Part shown: piece by piece, positions 3,606-64,000 of the stretch | How positions within the stretch are numbered: the stretch's first letter is position 1 | Layout: the number at the start of each line of letters is the position of its first letter | Origin: Candidatus Latescibacterota bacterium | GTDB taxonomy: Bacteria; Latescibacterota; CBDEFO01 | DNA: 64,000 nt | Assembly: GCA_965237525.1 (NCBI GenBank) | Contig: CBDEFO010000004.1 | Coordinates: forward strand, 384,001 to 448,000 | Direction: 5' to 3' | Program-made: the position numbers and the translations under genes | The notes under the pieces: model-generated | The model's database searches: none | The model's input: the letters and a program-made list of their open reading frames with translations, nothing else | Told to the model about the DNA's origin: nothing

Positions 3606-3681
3606 TTAAAGTTCTTATTGGCAACATACGTAATCCCTATCTGCCACTAAATTAATAGATAGAGGGAAGAAGCCCTGTCTA

Positions 3682-14539: not shown

Positions 14540-14698
14540 TTCTTCTTCTCACCTTCCTCAAACTGCAAAATAGCCTCCACAGATACCCTAAAATTTTTCT
14601 GCTTTTATCAAGATTAACGTTGAAACGATCTTGCAGGATGAAACTGCTTCGGGGTTTGGCATCTCGGAATGACTGAAGGCCTCAGGAGGTAATAAGAT

Positions 14699-14727
14699 TT
14701 GACTCTCGCATAGTTTTGCTCTATATT
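14699..14727 (+). promoter_or_regulatory. sigma70-type promoter
   Basis: TTGACT-N17-TATATT. Confidence 0.5.
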
Positions 14728-14856
14728 ACAGACGTCGCATTAGAGTAACCGTGCTCCCTTCCGGGCGTTACACTACTTAATAGACATGTTTCTCGCTATA
14801 CAATATTACCGATCGCAACCTGAAGGTGCAAGCAATTTTTGCCAGGACGCTTGAAC

Positions 14857-16527: not shown

Positions 16528-16659
16528 TTTTTTCTTCGCACCTTCCTGAAACTGCAAAATAGCCCCCCAACGATGCCTTAAGATCTTCAACTTTCAGCGT
16601 CAAATCCTCCTGTGGTTCGAAAAGATCGTATTTCTTAAGAATTTGTCACATTTTCTTTT

Positions 16660-21694: not shown

Positions 21695-24600
21695 GTGTAT
21701 CTACACCGTCTTGAAATATTCGGCTTTAAGTCCTTTGCTGATAAGATCACTTTGGACTTAGGAGACGGAATCACGTCTATCGTTGGCCCCAATGGGTGCG
21801 GCAAGACAAACGTGGTGGATGCCATAAGGTGGGCTTTAGGCGAGCAGAGACCGAGCTTGCTAAGGAGCGATAGGATGGAGGACGTAATATTCTGCGGCAG
21901 TAGGACCAGAAAACCGCTGGGAATGTCGGAAGTTACGCTTACCATCCAGAACACCAAGAATATATTGCCAATAGAGTTTAGCGAAGTTCAGATCACACGC
22001 AGGATCTTCGGGTCAGGTCAGAGCGATTATCTGCTTAATAAGGTCCCGTGCAGGTTGATGGACGTAAATAACCTCTTTATGGATACAGGGATGGGTCCAC
22101 ACGCCTACACCGTTATGGAGCAGAACATGGTTGAGGCCATTATCGGAGACAGCACGGAGGACAGGAGACGTCTGTTTGAGGAGGTAGCGGGCATAACAAA
22201 GTACAAGGTGCGCCGCAAGGCGACCTGGAACAAGCTGACATCCACACAGCAGGACGTTCTAAGGATAGGAGACATCATAGCGGAGGTGGAAAATCAGGTA
22301 GCCTATCTTCGAAGACAGGTCGGCAAAGCCAGAAGATATCAGGCGTATCAGGAAAAGTTAAAGGAATCAGAGATCTCGTTAGGCCGGCATAATTACTACC
22401 ATCTGGAGGCAAGGATACGTCCCTTGGCAGATCAGATAGAAAAACTTAGAGTGGAGATAGAGGAAGACTTGTCTGGACTTTCCCTGATGGAGTCCCAGAT
22501 TGAGAGAATAAGACTCAATCTTATCCAGAAGGACAAAGAGCGCTCTCTAACAGCACAAGTTCTCAACAGCCAGATCGAGCTTATCCAACGAAAAAGCGAA
22601 GAGGTGATAAAGGCCCAAGGAAGGATGGAGAGCCTGACAAAGGACATCGAGCGGCTTGGGCTGGAGGTCGCCGAGGCTACTCGGAAGTTAGATCAAACCA
22701 GAAGAGAAAGGGAAAAAGCCGAAGAGAGTATAACAAGAGTCAAGGCGGATAATCTATCGATCAAAGATAGCCTCAATGTCCAAGAGGAGGAACTGGAAAG
22801 GCTGGTTCGCTCCGTCTCCGAAAAGAGGTATGAACTCGAGGTTCACAAAGAAAAACTGATCCAGCTTTTCCGCTCTGAGTCCCAAAACAGGGGAGCCATT
22901 GAAAGGGATAAAGCCCACATGGACAATATCCTCTCTCGTCTGGAGAAACTGCGCGAAGAGGAGTGTGGCGCTCAATCAGAGCTTAAAGATGCCTTAAAAA
23001 GAGAGCAGGATGCCCTTGAAGCTAATCGAGAAACTCACGAGGCTATCCAAAAGATCAGCCGTGAAAAAGTGACTCTTGAAGAGGAACTTGAGGGGGAGAG
23101 GAAAAGATTAGATTCGATCAGGGAGCAGCTATCAGATGTTAAAGGGAAGATAGAGGCCAAAAGGGCCGCTCTGGCGCTCCTGGAAAAGATAAGGGAGTCG
23201 TATGAGGGATATTCAGAGAGCGTAAGGACCCTGATATTAAGCTCTCCCTATAAAGACCAGATAAGGGGAACTTTAGCAGACCTGCTTCACACACAGGAGA
23301 GATACGCCAAGGCTATAGAGGCGGCTTTGGGGCAGTCACTGGAGTATCTGGTGACGGACAAGATGGAGACAGCCACAGGTTCGATCTCGTTTTTGAAGGA
23401 ACAGGAGGGAGGGAGAGCCACGTTCCTTCCGATGGACAGATGCAAGAATGGCAGGGATAAAAACGAGTCGAACGAAAAGGACCCAATGAACATGGGATCC
23501 GACGAAAAGGTCGACCCCCGATTTAACCCACGATCTAGTCGGGGGGGGGACTCCGTAAAGCCGTCGATCTTGTCAGGTTCGATGATGAACTTGCCCCCAT
23601 TGTCCGCCTCCTGTTGGGAAAAACAGTTGTGGTGGAAGACCTGAAGACGGCCCTTTCCTGCTCCTTAGAGAACGGGAACTCCACAAGATTCGTTACGCTT
23701 GAGGGAGATATAGTCGAACCGTCGGGCCAGATAACAGGAGGTAATTCGACAGAGGTAGATATGAGCCTTATAGGCAGGACGGAGCAGATAGAGGCCCTCC
23801 GGGAACAGATTGAGGAGGAGGGCATAAACCTAAATTGCCTCTCACAGCAGATGACGGGATCGGAGGCTCGTATCTCGGCAATCTCAGTTAGCCTGTCGAA
23901 TGCCGAGGATACCCTATTAGAGCTCAGAGATAAGCTGTCCGAGTTCAAACAACAGGAGGCTCAAAGTAGATCTGACATAAAAAGGTTGCAGGCCAGGTTG
24001 GAGTCCATTTCAAAGGAGACCTTAGAGCTTAAAGAAAGATCCGAACAGCTTCTGGAGGATATAGAAAATCAAGAATTGGAGATAAAAAGACTCGAAGGGA
24101 AAAAAGAGGAACTGAGTCAATCCTCAGGTGAGTACGAACGGGCTTTGCGCACTCTGGAGGAGAACAGGAACCAAAAGGCCGAGGGAGTCCACGAACTGAG
24201 ACGAAAGATGACCTCGCTTGAGGAGCGTTTGCGGGGATTCTCGTCGGATGTGAAGAGATGTAACATACAGATAGCCGAACTTGAGAAGGCCGTTTCGGAC
24301 TCCAGATCCCAATCCGAAAAGGCCGGTGAGGAACTCGATAGGCTCAAAGCTCAAAAGGACAGGGACGAAGATGAGCTTGAAAAGCTCTATTCCCAAAGAT
24401 CCCAGATAGAAAAGGACAGGGACACAAAAGATTCGGAATATCACGAACTAGAGGTCAAAGAAAGAGAATTAGAGAATGAGATACGGGCTAAGAGGAGAGT
24501 GCAGGACGAGCGCAGGGAAAACCTTTCAGATGTCCAGTTTGAGCATTCACAGCTTACGTCCAGAGCCGGCATAGTAAGAGAGAACTTAAGAGACAGATAC

Positions 24601-25317
24601 GGCGTTGACGTGGTGGAGGTAGAACCTTTGGAGGAAGCGTTCAACCCTGAACTTGCCCAGATGCAAATAGAGGAGACACAGGGGAGGATAAGGAGCCTCG
24701 GACCAGTCAATATAGGAGCTATTGAGGAATATGAAAGAGGAACGGAGCGGTATGAATTCCTCTCTGGTCAAAGAGACGATCTACTGGAGGCGGAGGATGA
24801 TCTGAAAAAGACTATTGCCAAGATAGACAGAACCGCAAGGAGCATGTTTACCGAGACGTTTTCAAAGGTGGCAGCCAATTTTCGAAAGACGTTCGTGGAG
24901 TTCTTCGAAGGGGGCCAGGCCGATTTGATCCTATCCGAAGGAGATGATCCCCTGGAGTCCGAGATTAATATCGTTGCCCGCCCACAGGGCAAGAGGCTCC
25001 AGTCTATAAATCTTATGTCAGGCGGTGAGAAGACACTGACCGCCATAGCCCTCCTCTTTTCCATCTACCTGGTCAAGCCGAGTCCGTTCTGCATACTCGA
25101 CGAGGTGGACGCTCCATTAGATGACGCTAATATCGAAAGGTTCATTAAGGTCATACGCAAATTCTCAGACAGAACGCAATTTGTAATCGTGACTCATAAC
25201 AAACGCACCATGGAGGCGTCGGACTGTCTGCACGGCGTGACTATGGAAGAACCGGGAGTGTCTCAGCTCGTCTCCGTCAGACTCGACCTCAATAGAGATG
25301 GGGTGAATGCTGCCTGA
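21695..25317 (+). CDS. smc: Chromosome segregation protein SMC; apparent frameshift in a G9 run at 23541-23549
   Basis: GFKSF, GPNGCGKTN; hinge GRATFLP continuing after the shift as LRKAVDLV...LLGKTVVV; MSGGEK, LDEVDAPLDD. Confidence 0.93.
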
Positions 25318-27140: not shown

Positions 27141-27434
27141 ATGATAATGGGCAAGGTCGTGGGCACTGTTGTGGCCACACAAAAAAATGAGAGGCTCAAA
27201 GGGACGAAGCTTCAGATAGTCCAGCCTGTGGATATGGATGTCGTGCCTGTGGATTCGTACCTTGTGGCGGTGGATTCTGTAGGAGCGGGATACGGTGAGA
27301 TAGTCCTGTGTGCGAGCGGAAGCTCGGCTCGACAGACGAGCATAACGGAGAACGCGCCTGTAGATGCGGTTATCATGGCGATTGTGGATTCCTTTGAGAT
27401 TGAGGGCAGAGTGGTTTATCGCAAAGATGGCTAA
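27141..27434 (+). CDS. BMC vertex pentamer (EutN/CcmL)
   Basis: GKVVGTVVATQK, VAVDSVGAGYGE, GSSAR, PVDAVIMAIVD. Confidence 0.96.
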   Translation: MIMGKVVGTVVATQKNERLKGTKLQIVQPVDMDVVPVDSYLVAVDSVGAGYGEIVLCASGSSARQTSITENAPVDAVIMAIVDSFEIEGRVVYRKDG

Positions 27435-28905
27435 CGGAAAAAAGATAGCAAGCAATATCAAGCTAGATGAGGCGAAGATAAGGACGATTGTGGAGGAGGT
27501 GGTAAGGGAGTTTTCCCGGTCGAAATCGGCGTTGGACTCGGGCGATGGACGCAGATCTGAGATAGCGTCCGATATGGAGACAGGGGACGGTCTCTTTGAA
27601 AATATAGAGGACGCTATTTGCGCTGCCGAGATAGCTCAAAAGGAGCTATCTGATCTTTCGCTGGAAAAGAGGAAAGATATCGTTGAGGCGATAAGGAAGG
27701 TGGGGACAGAAAACGCCGAGGACCTTTCGAGGATGACCCTTGAGGAGACGGGCATGGGGAGGTTTGAGGATAAGGTGAAAAAGCACCTTATGGTGTCTCA
27801 GCTGACACCGGGAGTGGAGGATTTAAAGACGGATTCCTGGTCGGGCGACAGGGGACTTACGATTGTGGAGATGGCGCCTTACGGAGTGATAGGAGTCGCC
27901 ACGCCATCAACGCATCCTGTTCCGACGACGATCAACAACGCTATCTCTATAATCGCCGCGGGAAATTCGGCGGTGTTCAATCCTCATCCGGGGGCAAAGA
28001 GGGTCTCGGCGTGCGGGATAGCCAGGATAAATAAGGGTATAGTCGAGGCAGGAGGACCGCCGAATCTCCTGACAACTGTGACCGATCCGACCATAGAGAC
28101 GGCGAAGGTGCTGTTTAGCCATCCGAAGATAAGGTTGCTTTTAGTGACCGGAGGTCCGGGCGTTGTGAAGGCAGTGATGGAGTCCAACAAGAAGGCTATC
28201 ACAGCAGGTCCGGGTAATCCTCCCGTGGTCGTGGACGAGACCGCAGATCTCGAAAGGGCGGCAAAGGATACTGTACAGGGGGCCAGCTTCGAGAATAATA
28301 TTATATGCACAGCCGAAAAAGAGGTCTTCGTAGTGGAATCTGTGGCGGATGAGTTTAAAGAACATGTGAAGAATAACAACTGTCACGAGCTTACGGCGAT
28401 TCAGATAGAACAGCTCGCCAAGATAGCCTTTGTGAAGGATGAGAAGACTGGTCACCTTATGGTAAACAAGCAGTTGGTGGGGAGGGATGCCTCTGTCTTG
28501 GCCGAGAAGATCGGCGTTTCTGTTCCGAATGAGACGAGGCTCCTTATCGGCGAGACTTCCCCCGAGCATGTGTTTGTACAGGAGGAGCAGATGATGCCGT
28601 TTCTGCCTATCGTGAGAGTCTCCGATGTCCATAAGGCAATAGACCTTGCGGTGCAGGCCGAGCACGGCTACGGACATACGGCAGTGATGCACTCCAGGAG
28701 CGTGGAGAATATGACCGAGATGGCGAGGAAGTGCAACACTGCCATCTTTGTGAAAAACGGGCCTTCGATAGCGGGTCTTGGAGTGGGCGGCGAAGGGCAC
28801 CTCTCATTTTCGATAGCAGGTCCGACAGGTGAGGGGCTGACTTCACCACGCACGTTCACAAGGCAGAGACGATGCACGCTTGTGGATTATTTTAGGATTA
28901 TTTGA
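27427..28905 (+). CDS. Acylating aldehyde dehydrogenase (EutE/PduP-like) with an N-terminal encapsulation peptide
   Basis: APYGVIG, TGGPGVV, GPGNPP, NIICTAEKE, EQMMP, TGEGLTS; EP-like LDEAKIRTIVEEVVREF. Confidence 0.95.
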   Translation: MANGKKIASNIKLDEAKIRTIVEEVVREFSRSKSALDSGDGRRSEIASDMETGDGLFENIEDAICAAEIAQKELSDLSLEKRKDIVEAIRKVGTENAEDLSRMTLEETGMGRFEDKVKKHLMVSQLTPGVEDLKTDSWSGDRGLTIVEMAPYGVIGVATPSTHPVPTTINNAISIIAAGNSAVFNPHPGAKRVSACGIARINKGIVEAGGPPNLLTTVTDPTIETAKVLFSHPKIRLLLVTGGPGVVKAVMESNKKAITAGPGNPPVVVDETADLERAAKDTVQGASFENNIICTAEKEVFVVESVADEFKEHVKNNNCHELTAIQIEQLAKIAFVKDEKTGHLMVNKQLVGRDASVLAEKIGVSVPNETRLLIGETSPEHVFVQEEQMMPFLPIVRVSDVHKAIDLAVQAEHGYGHTAVMHSRSVENMTEMARKCNTAIFVKNGPSIAGLGVGGEGHLSFSIAGPTGEGLTSPRTFTRQRRCTLVDYFRII

Positions 28906-28920
28906 TAAAGTGGAGATATT

Positions 28921-29163
28921 GTGAGACCGCTATCGATCTTACTCAACATTGCCGTTGTTACTGCAATGATTTTTCTAATTGCATCTGAAGGTATACCGGA
29001 TGAAGGAAAGTACATGCTGTTGTTTGTACTTCTTATATTCACTCCAATAGTCAATCTTTATGTATTACTCGGAAAAAATGGGGACTGGGTTAGTCTTTAC
29101 TTTAAGAGAAAGGCCATGGAAGAAAAAAGTAGGATCGAGGAATTACAGAACAAAAAGCAATAA
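28921..29163 (+). CDS. Small two-TM hypothetical protein (cargo)
   Basis: GGAG RBS; AT-rich; two hydrophobic stretches. Confidence 0.7.
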   Translation: MRPLSILLNIAVVTAMIFLIASEGIPDEGKYMLLFVLLIFTPIVNLYVLLGKNGDWVSLYFKRKAMEEKSRIEELQNKKQ

Positions 29164-29253
29164 TTACTGCGCACAATGGCTTGTAGACAGTTGAACTCAA
29201 GAAAAGATTTCCACCTTTCCGATAGTCTGCTGGAAATGCATATAATAACAGAC

Positions 29254-29370
29254 GAAGATAATTAGCGAATGCGGTTGGTGAACATAATAGACTCTGTAGT
29301 AGCCACAAGGTAAAAACTGAAAAGCTGGATGCCCCAGAGTAATGTATATTTGTAATAGTTCGGATATACT
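29254..29370 (+). repeat. Degenerate copy of the BMC-P 5' end plus a shared ~65-bp tail
   Basis: ATGCGGTTGGTGAACATAATAGACTCTGTAGTAGCCAC resembles the gene start at 32766; tail matches 30837-30899. Confidence 0.75.
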
Positions 29371-29411
29371 GCCGGGAGGTTTCCGGTTTTTAACTTAGGA
29401 AGACCCACAGA

Positions 29412-30734
29412 ATGTCCCAGTGGATAGAAAGAATTGATAGCCATCCTCTACATGAACAGATGAGGACACTTGATTCAGTATTGGACGAACTGGATGAATT
29501 TGAGGACCCTTCGGAAGAGGGGACTCACGGCTTTGAAAGGCTAAGACAAATCAACGCTTTAGTTCAATCTAGAATATCCAGTTTGGATCCATTCCTTTTC
29601 CCTTTGCATATTCTTGACAGTCTTAGCTCTTCCATTCAAGAGATAACATCACAAGTTAAGCAGTACACGTCAAACCGGGACCTGGGCCACTTGAATAACG
29701 CGAACCAGGAAGCGGACACCGTGTTAGTTAATATTTCTAACTTACCTGTAATTAGAGGGCTTGAAGATGTCCAGGGACTCAGGGAAGCAGCTACTTCCTT
29801 TCGAAGATCCGTTGCACAGTATCAGAGATATGTGGAGGATGAACAAAAAGGGCTACAGGCTCCAATTCAGAGCTCACAGCAAAGGCTGGAACAATTAAAC
29901 ACAGAAATAGAAAACCAGAGAGGACGACTTGACTCTGCAATCGCTGAGTTTCAAAAACAGTTCTCTGAGGCAGAGGAGCGTCGGAGAAACGAACACGGGC
30001 AAGAAGAGAAACAGAGAGCCTCAGGATATGTGCAGGCGCAAACTGAGCGCGCAGAAACTTTCAGGGCGAATAGTGAAGAATGGCAGAAAACTTACCAGAA
30101 TCTGAAAGACGAAATCGCCAAAGCCCATGAAACTTTAACAGAAAAATATGACAGCAGCATACAAGAACTTGAGAGCAATTTCACCCAAAGCGCCGAAGTA
30201 TATATGCAAGAATTGGAATCTCACAAGGAACGGGCACAAGAACTTGTCTACGTAATAGCAAATACAGGTATGGTTGGTGGGTACCAGAAGATTGCCAATG
30301 AGGAGCGTCGGTCAGCAAATCGGTGGCATGTCATTACAATTGTTTCGTTGATCTGTCTAATAGGGTTCGCAATCTATGCTTTTGCTTCAACCATAGGTGA
30401 AGAAGTCAAAATTGCGACTTTTCTTGGTCGTGCATTTGTGGCAGTCACTTTTGGTATTTTGGCTGCGTATGCCGCGCGACAAGCAGACAGACACCAGGAA
30501 ATTGAACGAAATAGTAGAAGAGTTGAACTAGCGCTAGCATCCATCGACCCATATTTGGCTGGTCTCCCTGATGACACATTACAGGAGGTTAAAAAGGATC
30601 TTGCTCAAAGGTTTTTTGGTCAGCAGGATTCTGAACGGGCAAAGCGTAAGGAGAAGTTTAGTGGTAACGCTGCCGACCTGCTCCGCATGACAGTCGAAGC
30701 ACTTGTTGATATAGCGAAGAAATCTGGCAAGTAA
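29412..30734 (+). CDS. Coiled-coil protein with two C-terminal TM helices (cargo)
   Basis: 440-aa ORF, AGGAAG RBS, heptad-rich middle region. Confidence 0.8.
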   Translation: MSQWIERIDSHPLHEQMRTLDSVLDELDEFEDPSEEGTHGFERLRQINALVQSRISSLDPFLFPLHILDSLSSSIQEITSQVKQYTSNRDLGHLNNANQEADTVLVNISNLPVIRGLEDVQGLREAATSFRRSVAQYQRYVEDEQKGLQAPIQSSQQRLEQLNTEIENQRGRLDSAIAEFQKQFSEAEERRRNEHGQEEKQRASGYVQAQTERAETFRANSEEWQKTYQNLKDEIAKAHETLTEKYDSSIQELESNFTQSAEVYMQELESHKERAQELVYVIANTGMVGGYQKIANEERRSANRWHVITIVSLICLIGFAIYAFASTIGEEVKIATFLGRAFVAVTFGILAAYAARQADRHQEIERNSRRVELALASIDPYLAGLPDDTLQEVKKDLAQRFFGQQDSERAKRKEKFSGNAADLLRMTVEALVDIAKKSGK

Positions 30735-30778
30735 TCAAACAAGACCCTCTGATCTGGGAAATGATTCTGGACAACATG

Positions 30779-30969
30779 AAGGATATTTACTCCAAGGCAC
30801 TTAGGGAAAGTAATAGGCTCTGTCGTAGCCACATGGTTAAAACTGGACGCCACAGAGTTCACCCAGAGTAACGTATATCTGCAATAGTGCGTATATACCG
30901 CCAAATTGAAAAGATATCTGAAATAATGTGGACATGAACGAGGATTATTTTAGGATTATTTGAGAAAGT
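30779..30969 (+). repeat. Second degenerate BMC-P 5' copy and tail, then a copy of the aldehyde dehydrogenase 3' end (30942-30969)
   Basis: GGCACTTAGGGAAAGTAATAGGCTCTGTCGTAGCCAC; GGATTATTTTAGGATTATTTGA(G/T)AAAGT matches 28884-28911. Confidence 0.8.
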
Positions 30970-31010
30970 ACGATCATTATGCGTAATTGGCATCACCTAT
31001 GGAGGTTGCT

Positions 31011-31535
31011 ATGTGGTTCGTACGCTGTTTTAGCTGTTTACTGTCTCTGGTCGTGATACTGATCATGCCAGCAAATTCTGTATCCGAAGAGGATGAATGG
31101 TGGAAGTTAAAGGCAGATGATAGGGCATTCAGTTTCACAGAATTCAGAAAGAGAGCTGAGCGCGTAGGTAGTAGCCTGAACAACTTCGCTGATTTCACGG
31201 AAGTGCTTATTCGAAACAGCAATCTCAATCAAGCTGTTCTTAATCTTAGTGAAATATCGGATGATCAAGTTATCATCTTCAAAATTAAAGGCAAAGATCT
31301 TAAGCGATTTAGCATGGATTTACTCTGGGAAGCGCAATATATAGGTTTCAAGAACCGTATGACAACGATAAAAAGATATGGTTATATTAGCCAGAACGAA
31401 ATTCTTGAGTTAAGACTGGAGAATCTGAAGCTCAAGGGCGCTTCCCAGAAGGAGATCGAACAAATACAAGTCTCTTTGGACGAACAACAAAAGCAATTGC
31501 AGGACTTTCTATCTAAGGGGATCTGGGTTGACTGA
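31011..31535 (+). CDS. Secreted hypothetical protein (cargo)
   Basis: GGAGG RBS before MWFVRC; signal peptide. Confidence 0.7.
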   Translation: MWFVRCFSCLLSLVVILIMPANSVSEEDEWWKLKADDRAFSFTEFRKRAERVGSSLNNFADFTEVLIRNSNLNQAVLNLSEISDDQVIIFKIKGKDLKRFSMDLLWEAQYIGFKNRMTTIKRYGYISQNEILELRLENLKLKGASQKEIEQIQVSLDEQQKQLQDFLSKGIWVD

Positions 31536-31589
31536 AGTCTGAGTGGGTATTAGCAAGTTATCTGAATCTATTTAAGCAGGAAGAATTAG

Positions 31590-32141
31590 ATGAAAGCGTC
31601 CGCTATATTATCTCTCAGTATGAGACTTATTGCCTTACTGTTGGGGGTCCACGCCAATGTTTACGTACCGATGATTGGCTGGAGTATGGCGCGACTCCTG
31701 TCTGATGAACCCTACCAGTGGCCCAATATCGCATCTCAAGCGTCAGCTTTTATTCTGAGCCTTGTCGCAGCCTGTCTTCTTTTCAGATATGCGGATCTGC
31801 TGACCGCAAAATTTGTCTCCTCCGATGAAGAGATTGATATAAGAGGATTGGATGATCTCTCCAAGAGTCAGGATATGTTCCAGTTTGCGTTGAAAGTTGT
31901 CGGCGCTGTCTGCGTTGCCTTCTCGATCCCTCAGATTGTGGGACAGGGGATTATGAGGATAATGCTCAATCCTTCTTTTCAGATGCAGTTGTGGTCTTAC
32001 ATTGTGCCTGGAATCATACTTCTTGGGGTTGCTATCTACCTATTGAAAGACGGTCGTTTCCTAATGGATTTGGCCTACGGGCAAAGGATAAGAGGATCAG
32101 TTTCAGATAATACATCGGAGTCTTCAACTCCTTTGATCTGA
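31590..32141 (+). CDS. Four-TM membrane protein with an internal two-helix repeat (cargo)
   Basis: 183-aa hydrophobic ORF. Confidence 0.75.
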   Translation: MKASAILSLSMRLIALLLGVHANVYVPMIGWSMARLLSDEPYQWPNIASQASAFILSLVAACLLFRYADLLTAKFVSSDEEIDIRGLDDLSKSQDMFQFALKVVGAVCVAFSIPQIVGQGIMRIMLNPSFQMQLWSYIVPGIILLGVAIYLLKDGRFLMDLAYGQRIRGSVSDNTSESSTPLI

Positions 32142-32191
32142 TCGTTCTCTCCAATTTATAAAGCGGGTAGTTTGGAGGATAATTCAATCCG

Positions 32192-32362
32192 ATGCGCTTA
32201 GGAAAAGTAATAGGCTCTGTCGTAGCCACGCGGAAAGACCCTAATTTAGAGAGCATCATGCTGAGGATAGTCCAGCCGCTGAATCATAGGGGTGACAAGA
32301 TCGAAGAGCCTCTGGTTGCCGTGGACATGGTCTGTGCGGCCCACAAGGAGACGGGAAAATGA
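32192..32362 (+). pseudogene. 3'-truncated BMC-P copy (56 aa); stop overlaps the ybjQ-family ATG
   Basis: MRLGKVIGSVVATRKDPNLESIMLRIVQPLNH...VAVDMV; leader GGAGGATAATTCAATCC identical to that of the 32766 gene. Confidence 0.9.
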
Positions 32363-32673
32363 TTGTAACGAACACAGAAACAGTTCCCGGCAGAGAGATT
32401 GCAGAAATATTGGGCGTTGTTCGTGGCAATACGGTACGGGCAAAGCATGTTGGTAGAGATATTCTGGCTGGCTTAAAGAGCATCATTGGCGGTGAGATTG
32501 GCCAATACACACATCTCCTTATTGAGGCTCGCGAAGAGGCGTTCGAGCGTATGGTTCAAGAAGGACAGAAGCTGGGTGCAGATGCTATCGTGAATGTGCG
32601 CTTTGTTACCAGCATGATTGCCTCGAGTATGTCAGAATTGCTAGTTTATGGGACCGCGGTAAAACTTAAATAA
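32359..32673 (+). CDS. YbjQ / UPF0145 family protein (cargo)
   Basis: GRDILAGLKSIIGGEI...AREEA...GADAIVNVRF...YGTAVK. Confidence 0.92.
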   Translation: MIVTNTETVPGREIAEILGVVRGNTVRAKHVGRDILAGLKSIIGGEIGQYTHLLIEAREEAFERMVQEGQKLGADAIVNVRFVTSMIASSMSELLVYGTAVKLK

Positions 32674-32765
32674 CAGGAACGAGGCGACTTCACATAACTC
32701 GGGCTTTACGGCTCACTACGTTTGACTCAAATTGCCTTCGATAGTCTGGAGGATAATTCAATCCA

Positions 32766-33053
32766 ATGCACCTGGGAAAAGTAATAGGCTCTGTGGTAGC
32801 CACGTGGAAAGACCCCAATTTGGAGAGCATCAAGCTGAGGATAGTCCAGCCGTTGAATCATCGGCGCGAGGAGGTCCAGGAGCCTTTGGTGGCTGTGGAT
32901 ATGGTGGGTGCGGACTATAAGGAGACGGTATTTTATGTGACGAGCCGGGACGCTACGCACGCTCTCCCGAACGTATATGGGCCTGTGGACGCGGCTGTGG
33001 TAGGAATCGTGGACAGAATTGATGTAATGCAGAAAGGTAATGAATCGCTATGA
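32766..33053 (+). CDS. BMC vertex pentamer (EutN/CcmL), intact
   Basis: GKVIGSVVAT, VAVDMVGA, PVDAAVVGIVD. Confidence 0.95.
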   Translation: MHLGKVIGSVVATWKDPNLESIKLRIVQPLNHRREEVQEPLVAVDMVGADYKETVFYVTSRDATHALPNVYGPVDAAVVGIVDRIDVMQKGNESL

Positions 33054-33520
33054 TAAGAGCGCTAGACTTGATGTCAATTGCTCTGATTTTCTCCATGCTG
33101 ACTGGCTGTGGGAGTTCTCCGGCTCTGAAAAAGAGGGTAGATGACCTGACAGCGGAAGTGGAAAGGGCGCAGATAGAGAACACGATTTGGAAGGAGCAGA
33201 TAGCGGATCTGGAAGGAGAAATAGAGAGTCTGCGGTCGGCAAATAAACAGTTGAAGGAGAGTCTAACTGAGGCAAAGGCTGAGGTAGAAGCGCCTAAGTT
33301 GGAAGGTGAGCAGGATTTGTTGGAGATCGAATTGGGGGAAAAGTCCGCTATTGTAAAGCCGGCTGCCAAGTCTGAGGCGGATGCTTTGAGGGAGAAGCTC
33401 CTGAAGGAACGGGAGCAGAGGCTCAAATCCGATATACAGAAGGAGATGGAGAAGTTGGAGCAGAAGGTAAAGGGAGTCAAAGAGCCTGAGAAGGAAGAAA
33501 AAGAGGAGAAGAAAGAGTAG
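33050..33520 (+). CDS. Coiled-coil lipoprotein
   Basis: Lipobox LTGC; ATGA overlap with the BMC-P stop. Confidence 0.75.
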   Translation: MIRALDLMSIALIFSMLTGCGSSPALKKRVDDLTAEVERAQIENTIWKEQIADLEGEIESLRSANKQLKESLTEAKAEVEAPKLEGEQDLLEIELGEKSAIVKPAAKSEADALREKLLKEREQRLKSDIQKEMEKLEQKVKGVKEPEKEEKEEKKE

Positions 33521-33523
33521 ACT

Positions 33524-34450
33524 ATGATCCTAAGGCGTTATTTTACAGCTCTCAAGATCGCAGCATCGTTAGGAATTCTGGCTCTCATCGTCTTCAAGGT
33601 GCGTCCATCTGAGATCGTATCTGTGTTGGGGAACATGGATAGGGGTCTATTAGGTTGGGCGGCTCTTCTGTTGATCCCTAATCTGTTGATTCAGCTCTTA
33701 AAGTGGGGATATTTAGCCAAGACACTCAAGCCCAATGTGACAGTTGCGGAGATAGTTTCTTCTCTATTTGTGGGCATGTCCTTGGGGGCTGTGTCGCCCG
33801 CAAGGTCGGGGGAGCTTATGCGTGGATTGTGTATAAAGGATCAAAGCCCGGTCAGAATAGCGGGACTTGCCCTTATTGATAAGCTGTCGTCCTTCGCCGT
33901 GACTCTTATAGCGGCGATATTGGGCCTTATCATCCTCTATCCCTACATTATCGTCCTGCCGGGACTTGCGGTTATCAGCGTCGTAACGTGGGGGTGCTTC
34001 AACGTCGATCGCCTGGGGGACAGGTTAAAGGAAAAATTTCCAAATTTTCCCTTCAAGGAGAGGATATATCCACTTCTGGAGAGCTTTAACGTGCTGAACA
34101 ACAGGAGAATCTTATATATCCTGAGCTTGTCCGTTCTTTTCAACCTCACATTTTTTGCGCAATTCTACCTCTTGGTTCTCTCCTTTACAGATATATCGCT
34201 GAAAGCCGCTGCGTCTGTGATACCCTCCATATTTGTGATAAAGAGCCTTTTTCCTATAACTTTTGTAGATCTGGGAGTCAGGGAGGCCGTCTCTGTTCTG
34301 CTGCTTTCCAACTTTAACGTGGAGGGCGTCTACGCTTTTAACGCTGCCTTTATGCTGTTCCTTATAGATGTCGCAGCGCCGGGAATTGTGGGGAGTGTCC
34401 TGATCCTGACCCTCAAACCTGAGAGGACACACTATAGTGAAGATCGCTAA
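33524..34450 (+). CDS. Lysylphosphatidylglycerol synthase TM / flippase-like domain protein
   Basis: PARSGELMR, LIDKL, PITFVDLGVRE motifs. Confidence 0.85.
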   Translation: MILRRYFTALKIAASLGILALIVFKVRPSEIVSVLGNMDRGLLGWAALLLIPNLLIQLLKWGYLAKTLKPNVTVAEIVSSLFVGMSLGAVSPARSGELMRGLCIKDQSPVRIAGLALIDKLSSFAVTLIAAILGLIILYPYIIVLPGLAVISVVTWGCFNVDRLGDRLKEKFPNFPFKERIYPLLESFNVLNNRRILYILSLSVLFNLTFFAQFYLLVLSFTDISLKAAASVIPSIFVIKSLFPITFVDLGVREAVSVLLLSNFNVEGVYAFNAAFMLFLIDVAAPGIVGSVLILTLKPERTHYSEDR

Positions 34451-34709
34451 GGTCATTGGCAGCGTCGTATCTACGATAAAGAACAGAGCTTATTCGGGAA
34501 GGAAGTTGATGATCGTTCAGGCTCTGGACAGGGATCTTGAACCTCAAGAGGAGACGTTTCTGGCGGTGGATAGTGTAGGGGCAGGCGAAGGCGAGACGGT
34601 GCTTGTCATGAGTGAGGGGATCGGAGCGAGGCAAATATTGGATCTTGAAGTCGCGCCCCTGAGGTCGGTGATAGTTGGAGTGATAGATTCGGTAGATAGA
34701 GAAGCTTGA
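34437..34709 (+). CDS. BMC vertex pentamer (EutN/CcmL)
   Basis: AKVIGSVVSTIK, AVDSVGAGEGE, IVGVID. Confidence 0.95.
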   Translation: MKIAKVIGSVVSTIKNRAYSGRKLMIVQALDRDLEPQEETFLAVDSVGAGEGETVLVMSEGIGARQILDLEVAPLRSVIVGVIDSVDREA

Positions 34710-34712
34710 AAA

Positions 34713-35534
34713 ATGAATTCGGCTTACAGGATAAGAAAAGAGATTTTAGAGGTCTGCAAGAGGATGTATGAGCGGGGATATGTGGTGGCAAGCGAAGGCA
34801 ACGTGAGCGCAAAGATTTCTGACGATCGGATCTTATCGACTCCGAGCGGCTTTAGCAAGGGATTCCTAAGTGAGGATCAGTTGGTCCTCTGCGATCTGGA
34901 TGGGAGGGTAGTATCGGGCGGATTGAAGCCGTCGTCGGAGATCAAGATGCACCTTATGGTATACAAGGAGAGAGCAGATGTGGCTGGTGTGGTTCACGCT
35001 CATCCACCCTATGCGACAGGCTTTGCGGTAGCAGGTATCTCGATCAGAGAATGCGTTCTGCCTGAGGTTATTCTGCAGTTGGGCTCGATCCCATTGACCA
35101 GGTACGGCACTCCCTCTACGGAGGAGGTCCCTGAGTCCGTACGAAAGTACGTGCACGATTATGACGCTCTTTTGCTGGAGAACCATGGTGCTCTGACAGT
35201 GGGTAAGGACCTGATGGACGCCTACTACAAGATGGAGACTGTGGAGCATTCGGCTCAGATCATCTACATCGCCCGTCAGATGGGAAACGTAAACGTCCTT
35301 TCTTCGGAAAAGGTTCAGAGGCTTATCGAGACGAGCTACAGACCCGGAGAGAGACCCGCAGACCTTCTGTGTGAGACAGCGGAGGAGGGCTCTCAAGATT
35401 CCTGTGAAAGTGGCGATCAGGAGGTGGATCAGGAGACTATACGAGAGATAGTGCGGCGGGTGATGGACCAGCTAAGAGTAGTAGATAATAGTCAGCAGAC
35501 AGTAGTCATGGGCAAACACGCGCGTCGCCCGTAG
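34713..35534 (+). CDS. Class II aldolase (FucA-like) with a C-terminal encapsulation peptide
   Basis: EGNVS, TPSG, PSSEIKMH, HAHP, LENHG; DQETIREIVRRVMDQL. Confidence 0.92.
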   Translation: MNSAYRIRKEILEVCKRMYERGYVVASEGNVSAKISDDRILSTPSGFSKGFLSEDQLVLCDLDGRVVSGGLKPSSEIKMHLMVYKERADVAGVVHAHPPYATGFAVAGISIRECVLPEVILQLGSIPLTRYGTPSTEEVPESVRKYVHDYDALLLENHGALTVGKDLMDAYYKMETVEHSAQIIYIARQMGNVNVLSSEKVQRLIETSYRPGERPADLLCETAEEGSQDSCESGDQEVDQETIREIVRRVMDQLRVVDNSQQTVVMGKHARRP

Positions 35535-35579
35535 AGATGAATGTAGGGGGAAACCCACGAGTTCGCCCCCAGTAGACAG
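35508..35579. repeat. GTAG-type REP hairpins
   Basis: GGGCAAAC...CGCCCGTAG and GTAGGGGGAAAC...TTCGCCCCC; relatives at 54882 and 58594. Confidence 0.55.
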
Positions 35580-35738
35580 AGACACCCCTCCCCTCCTGTG
35601 AGATTCCTTCGGGATAGCACGCCTGGCAAGGACTAGACGTTTCAGAAGCTTCCACCGTGAGCAAAAAAAGCAATTTCGTAGACAGGAATTGCGAAGGAGT
35701 GGGGATGCCCTGTATGCTTTCTACTGTTTGAAATCTGC

Positions 35739-36998
35739 TTATATATTTGGGATAATGTCGAAGGTAAGAGTAATTCCAGACACCGATCTTTCGTAGGCTA
35801 TGGCCAAGAGTCCGGAACCTTTATAGAGGATCAGAACATCGCGTCCGACGAAATTGTCGTTTATCGCAGCCTGATTCCCCATGTTGGAGTACGGATAAGC
35901 TCTGGCGATTTCCGCCTCTTTGTCCGCAAGGCCCAGGACCATCTCTTTTAAATTCAGACGTCTGTCAATAGGGGCAAATTGCCTAAACCATACGACTTCC
36001 TGGACAGTGTACCCAGCTTCGACGTAGCGGTCTACGTCATAGTTCCTTCTATATCCTGTATCGAAAGATAAGACCTCTGTGTCGGGATAGAGTTTTCTCC
36101 ACATTCCCCACGTAGTCTGAACTATAGGAAGCATCGTAAGCTCCTTTTCGCCCATGCTTCCAGTCAGATTGGTAAACCCCATCTGAGTCCAGTAATCCCG
36201 ATTTTCTCTGTCATATATAACCACATTGTTGTTGAAGAGTGCTCCTGTGTTTCCGAACTCTGTCTCTGATGCGTCAAAGTTGACGCCTGATGCGGTCAAG
36301 GGACAGTAGGTCACGGATATCTTCTGTCCGCCGACCGAATGATTTACTATCTCGTGCCAGTTCATAATCCTTATGGGGTAAGCTTTGGCATCGCCATTGA
36401 TGGCTACTCCCAGGATTATGTCGTCGTCGAAGAGGCCGAACGATTCATCTGCATTCAGAAAGAGGGGGGAATCTAAAGGAGGGCTTGCATCTTTTGGGAG
36501 ATCCTGAAATATTTCGCCGGGGGAAACTTCTCTGAAGACCAGATTTTCTGAGGATGTTCCATCAGAACTCCATATCTGAGTGCCCTGCCAGAAAGATGCC
36601 CAGGCGAACCAATATGCACTGTAGGCTGCTATCTGTTCGAGCCGCGCTCCTTTAAGGGGGCCGCTTTCAGCTTCGCCTTTGATGTTCCAGACGGTTCCGG
36701 TCTCTTTATCTTTGATCCTGAAGGGAGAAAATGGGAGGACTGCAGATTCGCCAGTTCCACCGTCTTCAACAGGGATCTGATCTACAATATCTCCACCAGG
36801 CTGGGGAGCTTCTGAGTCAGAGGGAGTTTGATTGGTATTATCAGACTCAGGTCCTGGCGACAGGATATCAGTACCTGTGTCTGTGCTACTAACTCCGCAG
36901 GAGATGGAGAGAAAAATAACAGGTACACCTAATGCGGTCAAGAGTAATCTTAGGATCGTTATCCGCTCCTTTCGAGAAGCTACGATCACTCCCCCCAT
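35739..36998 (-). CDS. DUF3179-family lipoprotein, apparently circularly permuted
   Basis: KAYP..IMNWHEIVN, TYCPLT, YDRE...WTQ; lipobox-like SISC. Confidence 0.8.
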   Translation of the reverse strand: MGGVIVASRKERITILRLLLTALGVPVIFLSISCGVSSTDTGTDILSPGPESDNTNQTPSDSEAPQPGGDIVDQIPVEDGGTGESAVLPFSPFRIKDKETGTVWNIKGEAESGPLKGARLEQIAAYSAYWFAWASFWQGTQIWSSDGTSSENLVFREVSPGEIFQDLPKDASPPLDSPLFLNADESFGLFDDDIILGVAINGDAKAYPIRIMNWHEIVNHSVGGQKISVTYCPLTASGVNFDASETEFGNTGALFNNNVVIYDRENRDYWTQMGFTNLTGSMGEKELTMLPIVQTTWGMWRKLYPDTEVLSFDTGYRRNYDVDRYVEAGYTVQEVVWFRQFAPIDRRLNLKEMVLGLADKEAEIARAYPYSNMGNQAAINDNFVGRDVLILYKGSGLLAIAYERSVSGITLTFDIIPNI

Positions 36999-39961: not shown

Positions 39962-40991
39962 ATGGATGATGTATTATCAGGGCGGGAGAAAACTATCCTT
40001 CACTTTCTGGTCGACGAATATATAGACAGGGCTGAACCCATTGGATCGAGGGCGATATCTCAAACCGGTTCTCTTGGGGTGAGTCCAGCTACAATCAGGA
40101 ATTCTATGGCTGACCTGGAGGAAAAAGGCTACGTCCGCCAGCCTCATACGTCTGCGGGCCGGATCCCTACTGATAAAGGCTATCGGTGTTATGTGGATCA
40201 TCTTATGGGAGATGGGATATTAACAAGCACTGAGAAGTCTTTGATCAGTCAAGCGGTGCGTTCGCACATCAGGGAAGGTGATATCGAAAACATCCTGGAG
40301 CAGGTATCCAAAGCTATCGCAGATGTATCGAAACAGCTAGGTATCGCTCTGGCTCCCCGCTTTGAAAATGGCGTACTTGAGAAAGTTGAGTTAGTATCGT
40401 TCACAACTTATAAGCTCGTTTTAGTACTTAAGGTTGTGTCTGGCCCTATCAAGACGGTCATAGTGGAGTTAGATTCCAGCAATATCGTCCGATGAGCTTT
40501 TGGAGACCGCTGGAATATTAAACGACAGGCTCTCTGGACTTTCAATAGGTGAGATCAGAAGATCTATAAAGGACAGGTTCAAATCGGTATCCAGAGGAAA
40601 TCCTAAACTGATCCAAATAGTAGTTGAAGAGGTTAATGTCCTTTTTAATTTCGTTGGTCTAGGTAGACTCTACCTAGACGGAACCACCAATGTTTTTATG
40701 CAGCCTGAGTTTAGTGATAGCGAGAAAATATCAGACCTTATGAATCTTTTGGAGGACAGGGAGTCCGTTGTCTATATGCTCCACAAGAATACAGATGAAG
40801 AAGGAATCTCCATAACTATCGGTCATGAAAATAGGGCTGAGGGGATGGAGATGTGCAGTATGGTTAACTCTTCCTATGTTGTCGGCGGGAACGCCGGCAT
40901 TATAGGATTGATAGGCCCGACCAGGATGAAGTATAACAGATTGACAGCGTTGGTTAAATACGCGTGCGAACTGACGAGCAGTCTTCTATAG
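39962..40991 (+). CDS. hrcA: Heat-inducible repressor HrcA; apparent +1 frameshift at ~40475
   Basis: SPATIRN, PHTSAGRIPTDKGYR in frame 1; ISITIGHEN, IGPTRMKY in frame 2. Confidence 0.92.
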
Positions 40992-46358: not shown

Positions 46359-46383
46359 AAAGGCTATGTAGCAGCCGGCGACG

Positions 46384-46421
46384 GCGACATGCAGGGCGTC
46401 ATGCGACATGCAGGGCGTCAT
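46384..46421. repeat. Exact 19-bp tandem duplication
   Basis: GCGACATGCAGGGCGTCAT x2. Confidence 0.8.
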
Positions 46422-62676: not shown

Positions 62677-62702
62677 TCCAATAGGATTTTAGAGTAAGAC
62701 TT

Positions 62703-62879
62703 ATGCATAGAACTTTGATGATAATCAAGCCTGATGCTACGTCTCAAAACCATATAGGAGAGATAATAGACAGAGTCGAAAAAGAAGGCTTCAGAGTTCT
62801 TGCTATGGAGATGACAACTCTGAGGAGGGAAGAAGCAGCAAGGTTCTTTGAAACCAGAAGATATATCATGATGATATAA
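62703..62879 (+). pseudogene. ndk: 3'-truncated copy of ndk (first 50 codons plus 8 unrelated codons)
   Basis: MHRTLMIIKPDA...EAARFFE; 9 mismatches in 150 nt versus 63614-63763. Confidence 0.92.
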
Positions 62880-62966
62880 GTATTCGCACTGCACATAACA
62901 CAGCATATACACTTTGGGCTGACGCCCTTGCCTTTCGGGACATTGCTTAAGAGGGAAGGAAAATAT

Positions 62967-63350
62967 ATGGAAGACATTGAGAATGTTAGGAAATATAGAA
63001 AAGATATTTGCCAAGCCTTAGGTGTTGAGTTTAAAGAAGAGGATATGAATACCGATTATTTCCTCGGTAGGTTTCTGGGGGAACAAAGGGATTATCTTGA
63101 TTCTTTAGGCCTGATTAATCGTGGTTTTTGTCCCCTTTGTGGTGAGAAGCCAATAGGTAATGAATATTACAGAGGTATGGCATTTTCAAAGGCCCCCCAA
63201 TACTTGTGCAAGGATTGTTATGAGAGAACTGACCCACACTCGGCTGTCCCTGGATATACACGAAGGTACTACACTGTAAAATTTGTTATGTGGGCTGTTG
63301 GTCTTGGTATATTGATAGGAGCATTCTTATTGATTAGGGGGTGTTTTTGA
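62967..63350 (+). CDS. Zinc-finger (CxxC...CxxC) protein with a C-terminal TM (cargo)
   Basis: CPLC, CKDC; AT-rich; purine-rich RBS. Confidence 0.75.
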   Translation: MEDIENVRKYRKDICQALGVEFKEEDMNTDYFLGRFLGEQRDYLDSLGLINRGFCPLCGEKPIGNEYYRGMAFSKAPQYLCKDCYERTDPHSAVPGYTRRYYTVKFVMWAVGLGILIGAFLLIRGCF

Positions 63351-63379
63351 CTTTGTTCTAGTTGGAGGTGTTAAAATCT

Positions 63380-63589
63380 ATGACTAATGATGAACGACAT
63401 CATACTTTTCTTTTCAAATATTGTGGCTATATCATCTATCTTGTTTTCTTGGTTGGGTTATTTCGAAATGGGGGTGTGGCTACTTTACATTTCAAAAACG
63501 GCAGATGGTTATTCGCTATTTGGGCCCTATTTTCAATTATCCTTTTGCCTAAGGCTACGTTGGACCTCATTCTACTATTGGGTCGATAG
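63380..63589 (+). CDS. Small two-TM protein (cargo)
   Basis: GGAGGTG RBS; its stop lies inside the duplicated segment. Confidence 0.55.
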   Translation: MTNDERHHTFLFKYCGYIIYLVFLVGLFRNGGVATLHFKNGRWLFAIWALFSIILLPKATLDLILLLGR

Positions 63590-63613
63590 GTCTAAGGTTT
63601 TAGGGTATGTCTT

Positions 63614-64000
63614 ATGCAAAAAACTTTGATGATAATCAAGCCTGACGCTGCGTCTCAAAACCATACAGGAGAGATAATAGCCAAAGTCGAAAAAGAAGGC
63701 TTCAGAGTTCTTGCTATGGAGATGACAACTCTGAGGAGGGAAGAAGCAGCAAGGTTCTACGAAGTGCATAAAGGTAAGGATTTCTACGAAAGTCTTTTGG
63801 ATTTTATGACGTCGGGTAGGATCGTTCCGATGGTGTTAGAGCGGGAGGATGCCGTCGAGTATTTAAGAAAGGTCATCGGAGCCACTAACCCCGAAGAGGC
63901 TGAACCTGAAACTATCAGAAGCGACTTTGCCACGGATGTTCAAAATAACGCTGTCCACGCATCCGATTCTCCCCAAAACGCTGAGGTTGAAATAGCATTC
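63614..64000 (+). CDS. ndk: Nucleoside diphosphate kinase (runs off the window)
   Basis: IIKPDA, FYEVHKGK, FMTSG, GATNP, NAVHASDS. Confidence 0.97.
   Translation, partial: MQKTLMIIKPDAASQNHTGEIIAKVEKEGFRVLAMEMTTLRREEAARFYEVHKGKDFYESLLDFMTSGRIVPMVLEREDAVEYLRKVIGATNPEEAEPETIRSDFATDVQNNAVHASDSPQNAEVEIAF

Follow-up and report, generated by a model that had tools for sequence, protein, structure and literature searches.

A stacked gene array at a microcompartment operon junction in Latescibacterota, probably grown by host recombination with relatives' DNA that includes broken integrons

In a 64,000-nucleotide stretch of a Candidatus Latescibacterota genome (assembly GCA_965237525.1, contig CBDEFO010000004.1, positions 384,001 to 448,000 of the forward strand; hereafter the window), five unrelated genes lie between an aldehyde dehydrogenase gene and a BMC-P gene of a microcompartment operon, interleaved with pieces of the ends of these two host genes (Table 1). 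On balance, this array has probably grown by host recombination with the DNA of relatives, part of it derived from broken integrons, at a hotspot of gene gain. The observations that carry this reading are the repeats at the junction, the empty site in a relative, at least three cargo states, the recurrence of the design, the allele-like divergence of the copies, a dispersed family of sequences to which two tails in the array belong, and stubs of integrase genes beside some members of that family. The locus does not amount to a new system, be it enzymatic or programmable. A preliminary description, made from the sequence alone, had proposed serial gene capture by an undescribed system in which each event duplicates target sequence.

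The genome holding the window (G000, 4.58 Mb) was compared with the sole other genome of its genus (G001, 4.54 Mb), which is 95.1% identical to it over 2.16 Mb aligned. Coordinates without a prefix are window positions, L denotes loci, and C6, C7 and C8 are contigs of G000. The phylum comparison set comprised 151 genomes for homologues of the cargo and 148 genomes besides the genus for the tail family. Public sequencing runs (X), grouped by sample (S), entered the analysis as assembled contigs, not as raw reads; X4 and X5 form one sample, and of X1, X2 and X6, whose cover was slight or absent, only one loose end in X1 was used. Misassembly was considered and rejected. Independent support comes from G001, in which 30942-36000 is a single block, and from sample S3, in which 29043-30968 is one; a Logan contig of run X3 spans 28710-32221 with 0 differences to the window, but X3 may be the source sample and is hence not independent.

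Self-BLAST recovered the placement of the repeats, the tail shared by the two distal remnants and the shortening and decay of the remnants with distance from the intact BMC-P gene, all as first reported. Both host genes are whole, and the five open reading frames (ORFs) between them are co-oriented and unrelated, as had been described, with a G+C content at third codon positions (GC3) of 0.38-0.50 against 0.57-0.62 in three host genes. The absence of a recombinase from the site also held: none of the 56 ORFs scanned in the window encodes a tyrosine or serine recombinase, and the sole mobility genes among them are the two parts of a DDE transposase (11802-13203), some 16 kb from the array. The view of the remnants as copies of the native junction needs revision, however. 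Remnants 1 and 2 copy a remnant-plus-tail unit, and with their tails they align over 92 nt at 76% (29285-29373 versus 30811-30902, E 3e-12). The junction repeat pieces had no match elsewhere in the 4.58-Mb genome by BLAST at E <= 0.01; relatives of the tails were later found with a profile.

The remnants appear to carry traces of other alleles. The leader of remnant 1 contains a GTCTG..CAGAC insert that also precedes the intact BMC-P gene in samples S3 and S1 (loose ends) and is not found before the intact gene in G000 or G001. The G001 copy of remnant 3 has a one-base frameshift. The preliminary description had the cargo joining the operon transcript; a terminator-like hairpin precedes cargo 2, whereas the start codon of ybjQ overlaps the stop codon of remnant 3 (ATGA), and the remnant supplies an AAGGAG motif 8 nt upstream; ybjQ thus appears to borrow both its ribosome-binding site and its stop/start overlap from the remnant. 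A scan for promoters gave results close to chance (11 against 7.9).

The history of the junction can be read from relatives. The dehydrogenase end is present in 16 of 27 loci from other genomes of the phylum, and BMC-P lies within 3-101 bp of it in all 16. Because BMC-P follows directly in every one of them, the ancestral junction is taken to have been empty. G001 lacks exactly 28912-30969, a block of 2,058 bp, and has in its place a single 28-bp copy of the dehydrogenase end that is identical to the right-hand copy of the window; cargo genes 3-5 and remnant 3 are kept. A third state occurs in sample S3, where record 8 of run X5 links 30968 to 32749 via 2,012 other bases. The 2,058-bp block occurs in S3 too, as does a second dehydrogenase 3' end that has diverged at 22 of 201 nt. 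From 30-nt overlaps, the block-present and the diverged-end contigs of S3 are inferred to lead both into the other cargo, so that presence or absence of the block would combine with either cargo set. The junction therefore exists in at least three cargo states, and serial gain at one place, with an empty site and different cargo in relatives as anticipated, agrees with G001, S3 and the 16 phylum genomes.

The flanks of the array in S3 differ in their distance from the window. Left of the block, S3 is 99.6% identical (5 differences in 1,240), and from BMC-P onward it is 93.6% identical (113 differences in 1,752); 13 of 19 differences in or just past BMC-P match G001. S3 thus looks like a mosaic, the pattern expected from recombination. 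The flanking core genes combine a mosaic dehydrogenase end with a diverged downstream part, at one locus and not as a genome-wide rate. In metagenome contigs, 18 loci were found, all 34-54% identical and none of this genus, and in seven of the 18 a distance of 610-1,887 bp separates the dehydrogenase from the next BMC-P gene. An extra stretch of about 900 bp in genomes G007 and G017 was set aside as a junction insert, being upstream of the dehydrogenase.

If each event had duplicated the target, the two copies should look like a gene and its decaying duplicate. Across codons 28-55, remnant 3 and the intact gene align without gaps and show 19 differences in 84 nt (23%), only 2 of them at codon position 2; over the same 84 nt, the remnants of G000 and G001 differ at 3 positions and so do their intact genes. 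Pooled over 17 pairs and 741 codons (20 pairs were picked by hand and 3 yielded no codons), differences between remnant and intact copy fall on codon positions 1, 2 and 3 in the numbers 80:52:136. This distribution is compatible with the pattern of orthologues (25:18:57%, p 0.076) and departs from a rough model of duplication followed by decay (31:29:40%, p 0.0005). For the nine events that have an empty-site counterpart, a three-way comparison assigned 41 changes to the intact copy alone, 36 to the remnant alone and 14 (of 714 nt) to the empty site alone, counts that a deletion between older repeats in the empty genome would fit equally well. The excess in the intact copy speaks against self-duplication after the split of the genomes, because self-duplication predicts the fewest changes there. 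Remnant and intact copies accordingly seem to differ in the manner of diverged working alleles, which favours one-sided homologous recombination over self-duplication. Comparison with the alleles of other strains, made on two genomes and without a tree, points the same way for the leader type of remnant 1 and the codon pattern.

Self-duplication, with both copies stemming from the recipient's own target, would nevertheless fit some features of the array. The 2,058-bp block has ends identical at 27 of 28 positions and an empty site in G001, the repeats span starts and stops as in the events described by Furuta et al. 2010 (PMC2853133), and the remnants become shorter and more decayed with distance. 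Moreover, true tandem duplications account for 103 of 475 small indels, against 0-2% in controls, so the lineage also makes self-duplications. Relatives carry tandem duplications of 18, 21 and 16 nt at 29055, 29127 and 31560. As an account of the whole array it is unlikely, given the codon-position pattern, the excess of changes private to the intact copy, the leader type of another strain in remnant 1, the gap-free 23% divergence in the second half of remnant 3, and cargo that holds no restriction-modification gene. An origin of both copies from the recipient's target would thus fit the block with its 27 of 28 identical positions, whereas the pooled counts oppose it for most pairs. The statement that each event duplicates the target can hence hardly be kept in general, the more so as no separate duplication accompanies the genes at 31011 and 31590.

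Another reading is that a longer array is ancestral in the genus, having formed by one or two old tandem duplications together with captured genes, and that relatives have lost parts of it through recombination between repeats. Such losses would explain why so few changes are private to the empty site and why some events show left/right mosaic patterns; remnants 1 and 2 are also copies of each other, and cargo genes 3-5 are common to G001. The unrelated 2,012-base cargo of S3, its diverged dehydrogenase patch and the presence of five unrelated genes would be left unexplained, and the empty junction in 16 other genomes means that gains must have occurred. An ancestral array is therefore regarded as very unlikely.

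The design is not confined to the microcompartment operon. Its recurrence at a gene that is taken to be ndk from reading the sequence, not from a library match, had been pointed out before and was confirmed: the insert measures 910 bp, the repeat 160 bp, and the cargo has a G+C content of 0.39. Other host genes, read from their translations, are presumably tpiA, nrdR, apt, acs, rlmN and glyA. The comparison of indels, which covered G000 against 2.8 of the 4.54 Mb of G001, yielded 190 clean indels of at least 150 bp, 41 with an overlap of at least 15 bp and 149 with one below 15 bp. A repeat of 25-450 bp surrounds at least 100 bp of cargo in 24 indels, nine of which were classed by hand as gene-boundary events, among them ndk and the 2,058-bp block; the other 15 were dropped as internal repeat changes (6), tandem paralogue arrays (3) or long or unclear repeats (6). 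Of 61 labelled pairs within G000, 44 are oriented so as to preserve the host gene, with a 5' remnant upstream or a 3' remnant downstream (p 0.0007 if independent, which the labels, based on crude ORF calls, are not). A second large array, at C8:1793000-1803200, follows aroC/aroK-like genes and contains repeated host 3' ends; it also holds two attI-like copies and an insertion sequence.

About 44 host-preserving units in one genome might suggest a dedicated, undescribed capture system aimed at gene ends, with a recombinase, reverse transcriptase or nuclease encoded elsewhere. The repeats, however, range from 28 to more than 300 bp and share no end motif, 149 of the 190 inter-genome indels have an overlap below 15 bp, and the same footprint is known from unrelated taxa (PMC2853133), which makes such a system most improbable, although no search aimed at reverse transcriptases was made in the genome. 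The design recurs, yet it explains a minority of the gene gains and losses.

Part of the cargo is probably linked to integrons through the tails of remnants 1 and 2. From these two tails alone, siblings were found elsewhere in the genome (best E 0.0014), which define a family of about 110 bp; G000 has 15 copies, the reversed genome 0. Counted across the phylum, G000 and G001 have 14 copies apiece and the 148 other genomes 0; the family is dispersed and restricted to the genus. No member was found in viral contigs, plasmids or the L196 genome. Tail 1 reaches E 5e-7 in the family search, with the seed included. Tail 2 ends where its siblings have a GTT core, and both window tails are without the core. 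GTTR stands at the end of 14 of 28 copies, one of them past the core, compared with 20% of random windows. A broken C-terminus of a tyrosine recombinase lies directly upstream of two of 15 copies in G000 and one of 13 in G001. These stubs are related to NF040815 and TIGR02249 but score below both cut-offs.

A relative of the stub recombinase in genome G059 (L209:317-2990), with NF040815 as best match and below the cut-offs of NF040815 and TIGR02249, opens a co-oriented array of integrase, GTTAACC, ORF, GGTTAAC with a hairpin (z -2.98) and a second cassette. This locus is a candidate non-canonical inverted integron; a second relative of the stub recombinase, in G078, has no array, and further searches with the stubs gave relatives without context, or nothing. 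In archaeal integrons, a putative attI lies directly downstream of the integrase gene (10.1101/2022.02.06.479319). G000 also has a second family, in which 3' stubs of canonical IntI are followed by a common spacer of about 170 nt ending in GTTAGG (C7:460346-461240, C7:547864-548055 and C6:283089-283187); the first of these runs from an IntI stub through GTTAGGC and an ORF to an attC-like hairpin starting with GCCTAAC, a complete first cassette. On the strength of the integrase stubs, the GTTR ends, the G059 array, the archaeal precedent and the second family with IntI stubs, the tails are, on a provisional reading, likely to be orphan attI sites. A dif/pdif or LexA reading of the tail had been considered and was dropped by eye against the consensus motifs. 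The literature searched, a scope outside which most subscription papers fall, contained no account of a solitary attI with a truncated integrase, of integrons in Latescibacterota or, by title or abstract, of this type of integrase.

The second trace of an integron is what may be half an attC after ybjQ, which lacks the right arm and runs straight into the BMC-P leader. A complete 74-nt version of the hairpin, with matching AAC/GTT ends, lies between two co-oriented ORFs in L196, an Anaerolineae contig; its folding is modest (z -1.57), and the half in the window does not fold (z +0.38). A pattern of 21 nt from the half site matched G001 and L196, with about one match expected by chance, but the bases flanking the match agree as well, which occurred in 0 of 20,000 shuffles; two earlier pattern scans had given 0 matches. 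The strict scan found five intact attC-like hairpins, some of them by chance and none on the window contig, against about 15 attI-like copies; the array has only the half site. At C6:47338, an attI-like copy with a GAT core is followed by a 30-nt cassette without an ORF, an attC-like hairpin and then further genes. The array itself is not an integron, as it has no integrase beside it and no intact attC. The earlier characterisation as integrase-free thus stands for the joints, whereas part of the cargo, with its attI-like tails and half attC, likely came from integrons.

An integron integrase supplied transiently in trans could have used the attI-like tails as working landing sites or crossover partners, in which case part of the array would be site-specific. 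The end of tail 2 falls at the core and adjoins the dehydrogenase copy, in which GAT agrees with the GWT consensus reported for integrase targets in genomes (10.1101/2022.09.11.507474). About 14 attI-like sites per genome, the copy with a closed ORF-less cassette, and the second family with its IntI stub, GTTAGGC, ORF and attC with matching GCCTAAC would also agree with such activity. The joints speak a different language: the attC-like element is cut in its loop and tail 1 mid-way, neither at the crossover point of an integrase, and the joint of tail 2 is one base off the strict crossover. Furthermore, no IntI exceeded the TIGR02249 cut-off in G000 or G001 (0 of 2), closed cassettes are rare, and remnants of host genes 40-187 nt long are not explained. 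An integrase acting in trans is accordingly held to be very improbable for the array; an integrase step is conceivable for the joint of tail 2, since this tail ends at the core, one base off the strict GAT crossover. In a broader variant, housekeeping operons of the genus would have received about 15 orphan attI sites that stem from a non-canonical inverted integron, and these would work as a scattered integron without an integrase; visiting integrases would drop cassettes into the orphan sites, and recombination in the adjacent host genes would spread the loaded sites from strain to strain and stack them. This too is quite unlikely.

Growth by recombination with relatives may be pictured as follows. 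Foreign DNA would first enter the spacer in some strains. DNA of such a relative would then pair with the dehydrogenase or the BMC-P gene of the recipient at one end, while its other end would join at short or no homology, so that the old gene end is stranded as a remnant while the new allele is whole. Repetition would stack cargo and remnants, two-sided homologous exchange would let strains trade complete cargo sets, and these could be lost again by recombination between repeats. The route may be one-ended break repair or homology-facilitated illegitimate recombination, a mechanism summarised in PMC5361080 and PMC2884548. Natural transformation is the presumed mode of uptake, and selection would favour joints that leave the host gene whole. 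Broken integrons would have contributed part of the cargo, as suggested by the attI-like tails and the half attC. ComEC is present in both genomes of this uncultured lineage, and Ku was not found in G000 or G001.

Several points weigh against this picture. ComEC is common (10 of 14 control genomes have it). Neither a donor nor an intermediate came to light in the contigs. Tail 2 ends within one base of the core, which is rare for a random joint. The profile of the tail family (R1) has no match at the G059 site, and no intact integrase was found beside the family in searches of viral contigs, plasmids, the L196 genome and the phylum genomes. An attC closing the first cassette was found by a strict test at one of 15 copies (3 of 60 in the control), and by a relaxed test, set after the strict one, at one or two of 15 (1 and 4 of 150 in the controls). 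In two of the nine events with an empty site, the remnant is the more diverged copy (8 against 0 and 10 against 4). The tandem duplications among small indels, the fit of the polarised counts to deletion, the hand-picked pairs and the rough decay model count on the same side.

The footprint itself is already known as insertion with long target duplication at a transfer hotspot free of mobile elements, and to this extent the claim of an undescribed system falls. A further reference for such insertions is reportedly Nobusato et al. 2000. Furuta et al. 2010 describe repeats across start and stop codons and insertion into operons, and treat the mechanism of long target duplication as still hypothetical (PMC2853133). 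The present inserts resemble theirs in being shorter than 20 kb (2,058 and 910 bp), in having variable direct repeats and no mobile element, and in the single repeat copy that a relative keeps where the insert is lacking, a state that G001 shows for the block and for ndk. For the 187-bp BMC-P repeat, no empty site in a close relative is available. Unlike the published cases, selected with a cut-off above 30 bp, the block has a repeat of 28 bp, while the 160 bp of ndk pass. Restriction and modification genes, a screening criterion in that study, are absent from the cargo here according to Pfam, PADLOC and NCBIfam scans, and instead of near-identical duplicates, nested, serial copies with allele-like divergence are found (PMC2853133).

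Immunity gene arrays of the Vibrio type VI secretion system (Kirchberger et al. 2017, PMC5361080) likewise combine a conserved anchor, repeated additive gain and stranded remnants of gene ends. In these arrays, copies are closer to those of other strains than to each other, and whole sets are replaced by homologous recombination. The array in the window differs in its housekeeping or metabolic host genes, in cargo unrelated to the host gene and in having both 5' and 3' remnants. It also resembles the hotspots of Oliveira et al. 2017 (PMC5635113), which are flanked by core genes, turn over rapidly and have no integrase; in those hotspots, the neighbouring core genes bear marks of recombination. 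Here, the accessory content between one pair of core genes varies among the window, G001, S3 and the 16 empty junctions. Gene-end remnants distinguish the present locus from those hotspots as described in the available portions, and it is represented by two genomes and a few metagenome alleles. With integron derivatives (In0, CALIN, SALIN, attG and inverted-integrase forms), the locus shares an attC-like hairpin after a short gene and GTTR cores (PMC4889954; 10.1101/2022.09.11.507474), and with archaeal integrons the attI-like sites directly 3' of the integrase end (10.1101/2022.02.06.479319). Unlike in integrons, the sites occur broken or as orphans, nothing but 3' stubs is left of the integrase, and attI-like copies outnumber intact attC-like hairpins (PMC4889954).

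Among the five cargo proteins, Pfam names YbjQ alone. The 80-aa protein of cargo 1 found matches confined to G000 among the 151 phylum genomes. Cargo 2 belongs to a widespread but patchy family with 92 homologues scattered over phyla, one of which sits within a type I restriction-modification operon. Its nearest named cluster is DUF6161 at 0.89, a lead only, and its PADLOC matches are weak coiled-coil matches; the structure model (pLDDT, the predicted local distance difference test score, 84) had no fold match in the PDB at E <= 0.001, and no viral relative was found. A role of cargo 2 in defence is thus a lead only. Cargo 3 is about 86% identical to its G001 copy, compared with 93-97% for cargo 4 and ybjQ. 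Beside four distant homologues of cargo 4 that were inspected, no attC-like site was found; for cargo 1, 3 and 4 no link to integrons is apparent, the attC check having been made for the homologues of cargo 4.

Table 1. Features of the junction between the dehydrogenase and BMC-P genes and of the second unit at ndk (window positions).
Feature	Position	Strand	Remarks
Aldehyde dehydrogenase, left host gene, intact	27427..28905	+	Pfam Aldedh; microcompartment operon
Left copy of 28-bp dehydrogenase 3' end	28884..28911	+	27/28 identical to 30942-30969, E 3e-6 (self-BLAST)
Cargo 1, 80-aa membrane protein	28921..29163	+	No Pfam, PADLOC or NCBIfam match; GC3 0.38
Remnant 1: BMC-P leader and first ~40 nt, longer leader type	29221..29306	+	Self-BLAST at 29254-29306; 74.5% to intact BMC-P over 55 nt
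Tail 1, truncated member of likely attI family	29307..29374	+	Model R1 positions 37-75 of 130, E 0.017
Terminator-like hairpin and T run, before cargo 2	29371..29387	+	Consensus scan; 5 found vs 2.9 expected in shuffles
Cargo 2, 440-aa all-helical protein, defence candidate	29412..30734	+	Predicted N-terminal bundle, long coiled coil, C-terminal membrane helices
Remnant 2: BMC-P leader and first ~40 nt	30777..30836	+	83.6% to intact BMC-P over 61 nt (self-BLAST)
Tail 2, near-complete member of likely attI family	30837..30942	+	R1 positions 6-119; in training set
Right copy of 28-bp dehydrogenase 3' end	30942..30969	+	Right border of 2,058-bp block without counterpart in G001
Cargo 3, 174 aa, likely signal peptide	31011..31535	+	No Pfam, PADLOC, NCBIfam or Atlas match
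Cargo 4, 183-aa membrane protein	31590..32141	+	Homologues in 6/151 phylum genomes, G000 included
Remnant 3: leader and 55 codons of diverged BMC-P allele	32168..32362	+	Stop overlaps ybjQ start; 32168-32354 is 85.0% to intact BMC-P over 187 nt, E 4e-56 (self-BLAST)
Cargo 5, YbjQ (UPF0145)	32359..32673	+	PF01906, E 7e-39
Left arm and loop of attC-like hairpin, cut before right arm, joined to BMC-P leader	32679..32741	+	After ybjQ
Leader and intact BMC-P (EutN/CcmL), right host gene	32740..33053	+	PF03319; G001 protein 94% identical
Second unit: ndk 5' remnant 62687-62847, 750 bp cargo, intact ndk from 63614	62687..64000	+	Absent from G001

Downstream of the array, a lipoprotein-like gene and a membrane gene of the lysylphosphatidylglycerol-synthase type lie between the second and third BMC-P genes (33050-34450), the first of the two being strongly diverged from G001 (82% in one 300-nt bin). 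Elsewhere in the window, a tandem duplication of about 1.95 kb with two DUF4159 genes (13220-16605) has copies 84-92% identical. The genes smc (21695-25317) and hrcA (39962-40991) and the DDE transposase (11802-13203) are each split in two ORFs, by frameshifts that are either real or assembly errors; in G001, the downstream part of smc is open and the dehydrogenase is split. A 51-bp tandem repeat within a gene of 360 aa (45458-46420) differs from G001 in copy number by 663 bp. Short palindromes of the ATCCCCGAT type are dispersed at 3680, 4267, 6137, 16721, 27074, 42852 and 44686.

Two aspects are new here, the allele signal in the copies and the dispersed attI-like family, nothing on the latter having been found in the literature searched. 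The candidate attI family would represent a class of sites beyond the search of integron finders as described in the available parts of PMC4889954. Counts by codon position, together with three-way counts, offer a simple test of whether a second copy is a duplicate or an allele. The results suggest that the "duplicate" in the footprint of long target duplication is often a second allele acquired from a relative, and this would link the footprint to ordinary one-sided recombination. The locus further hints at how integron genes may reach core operons without an integrase.

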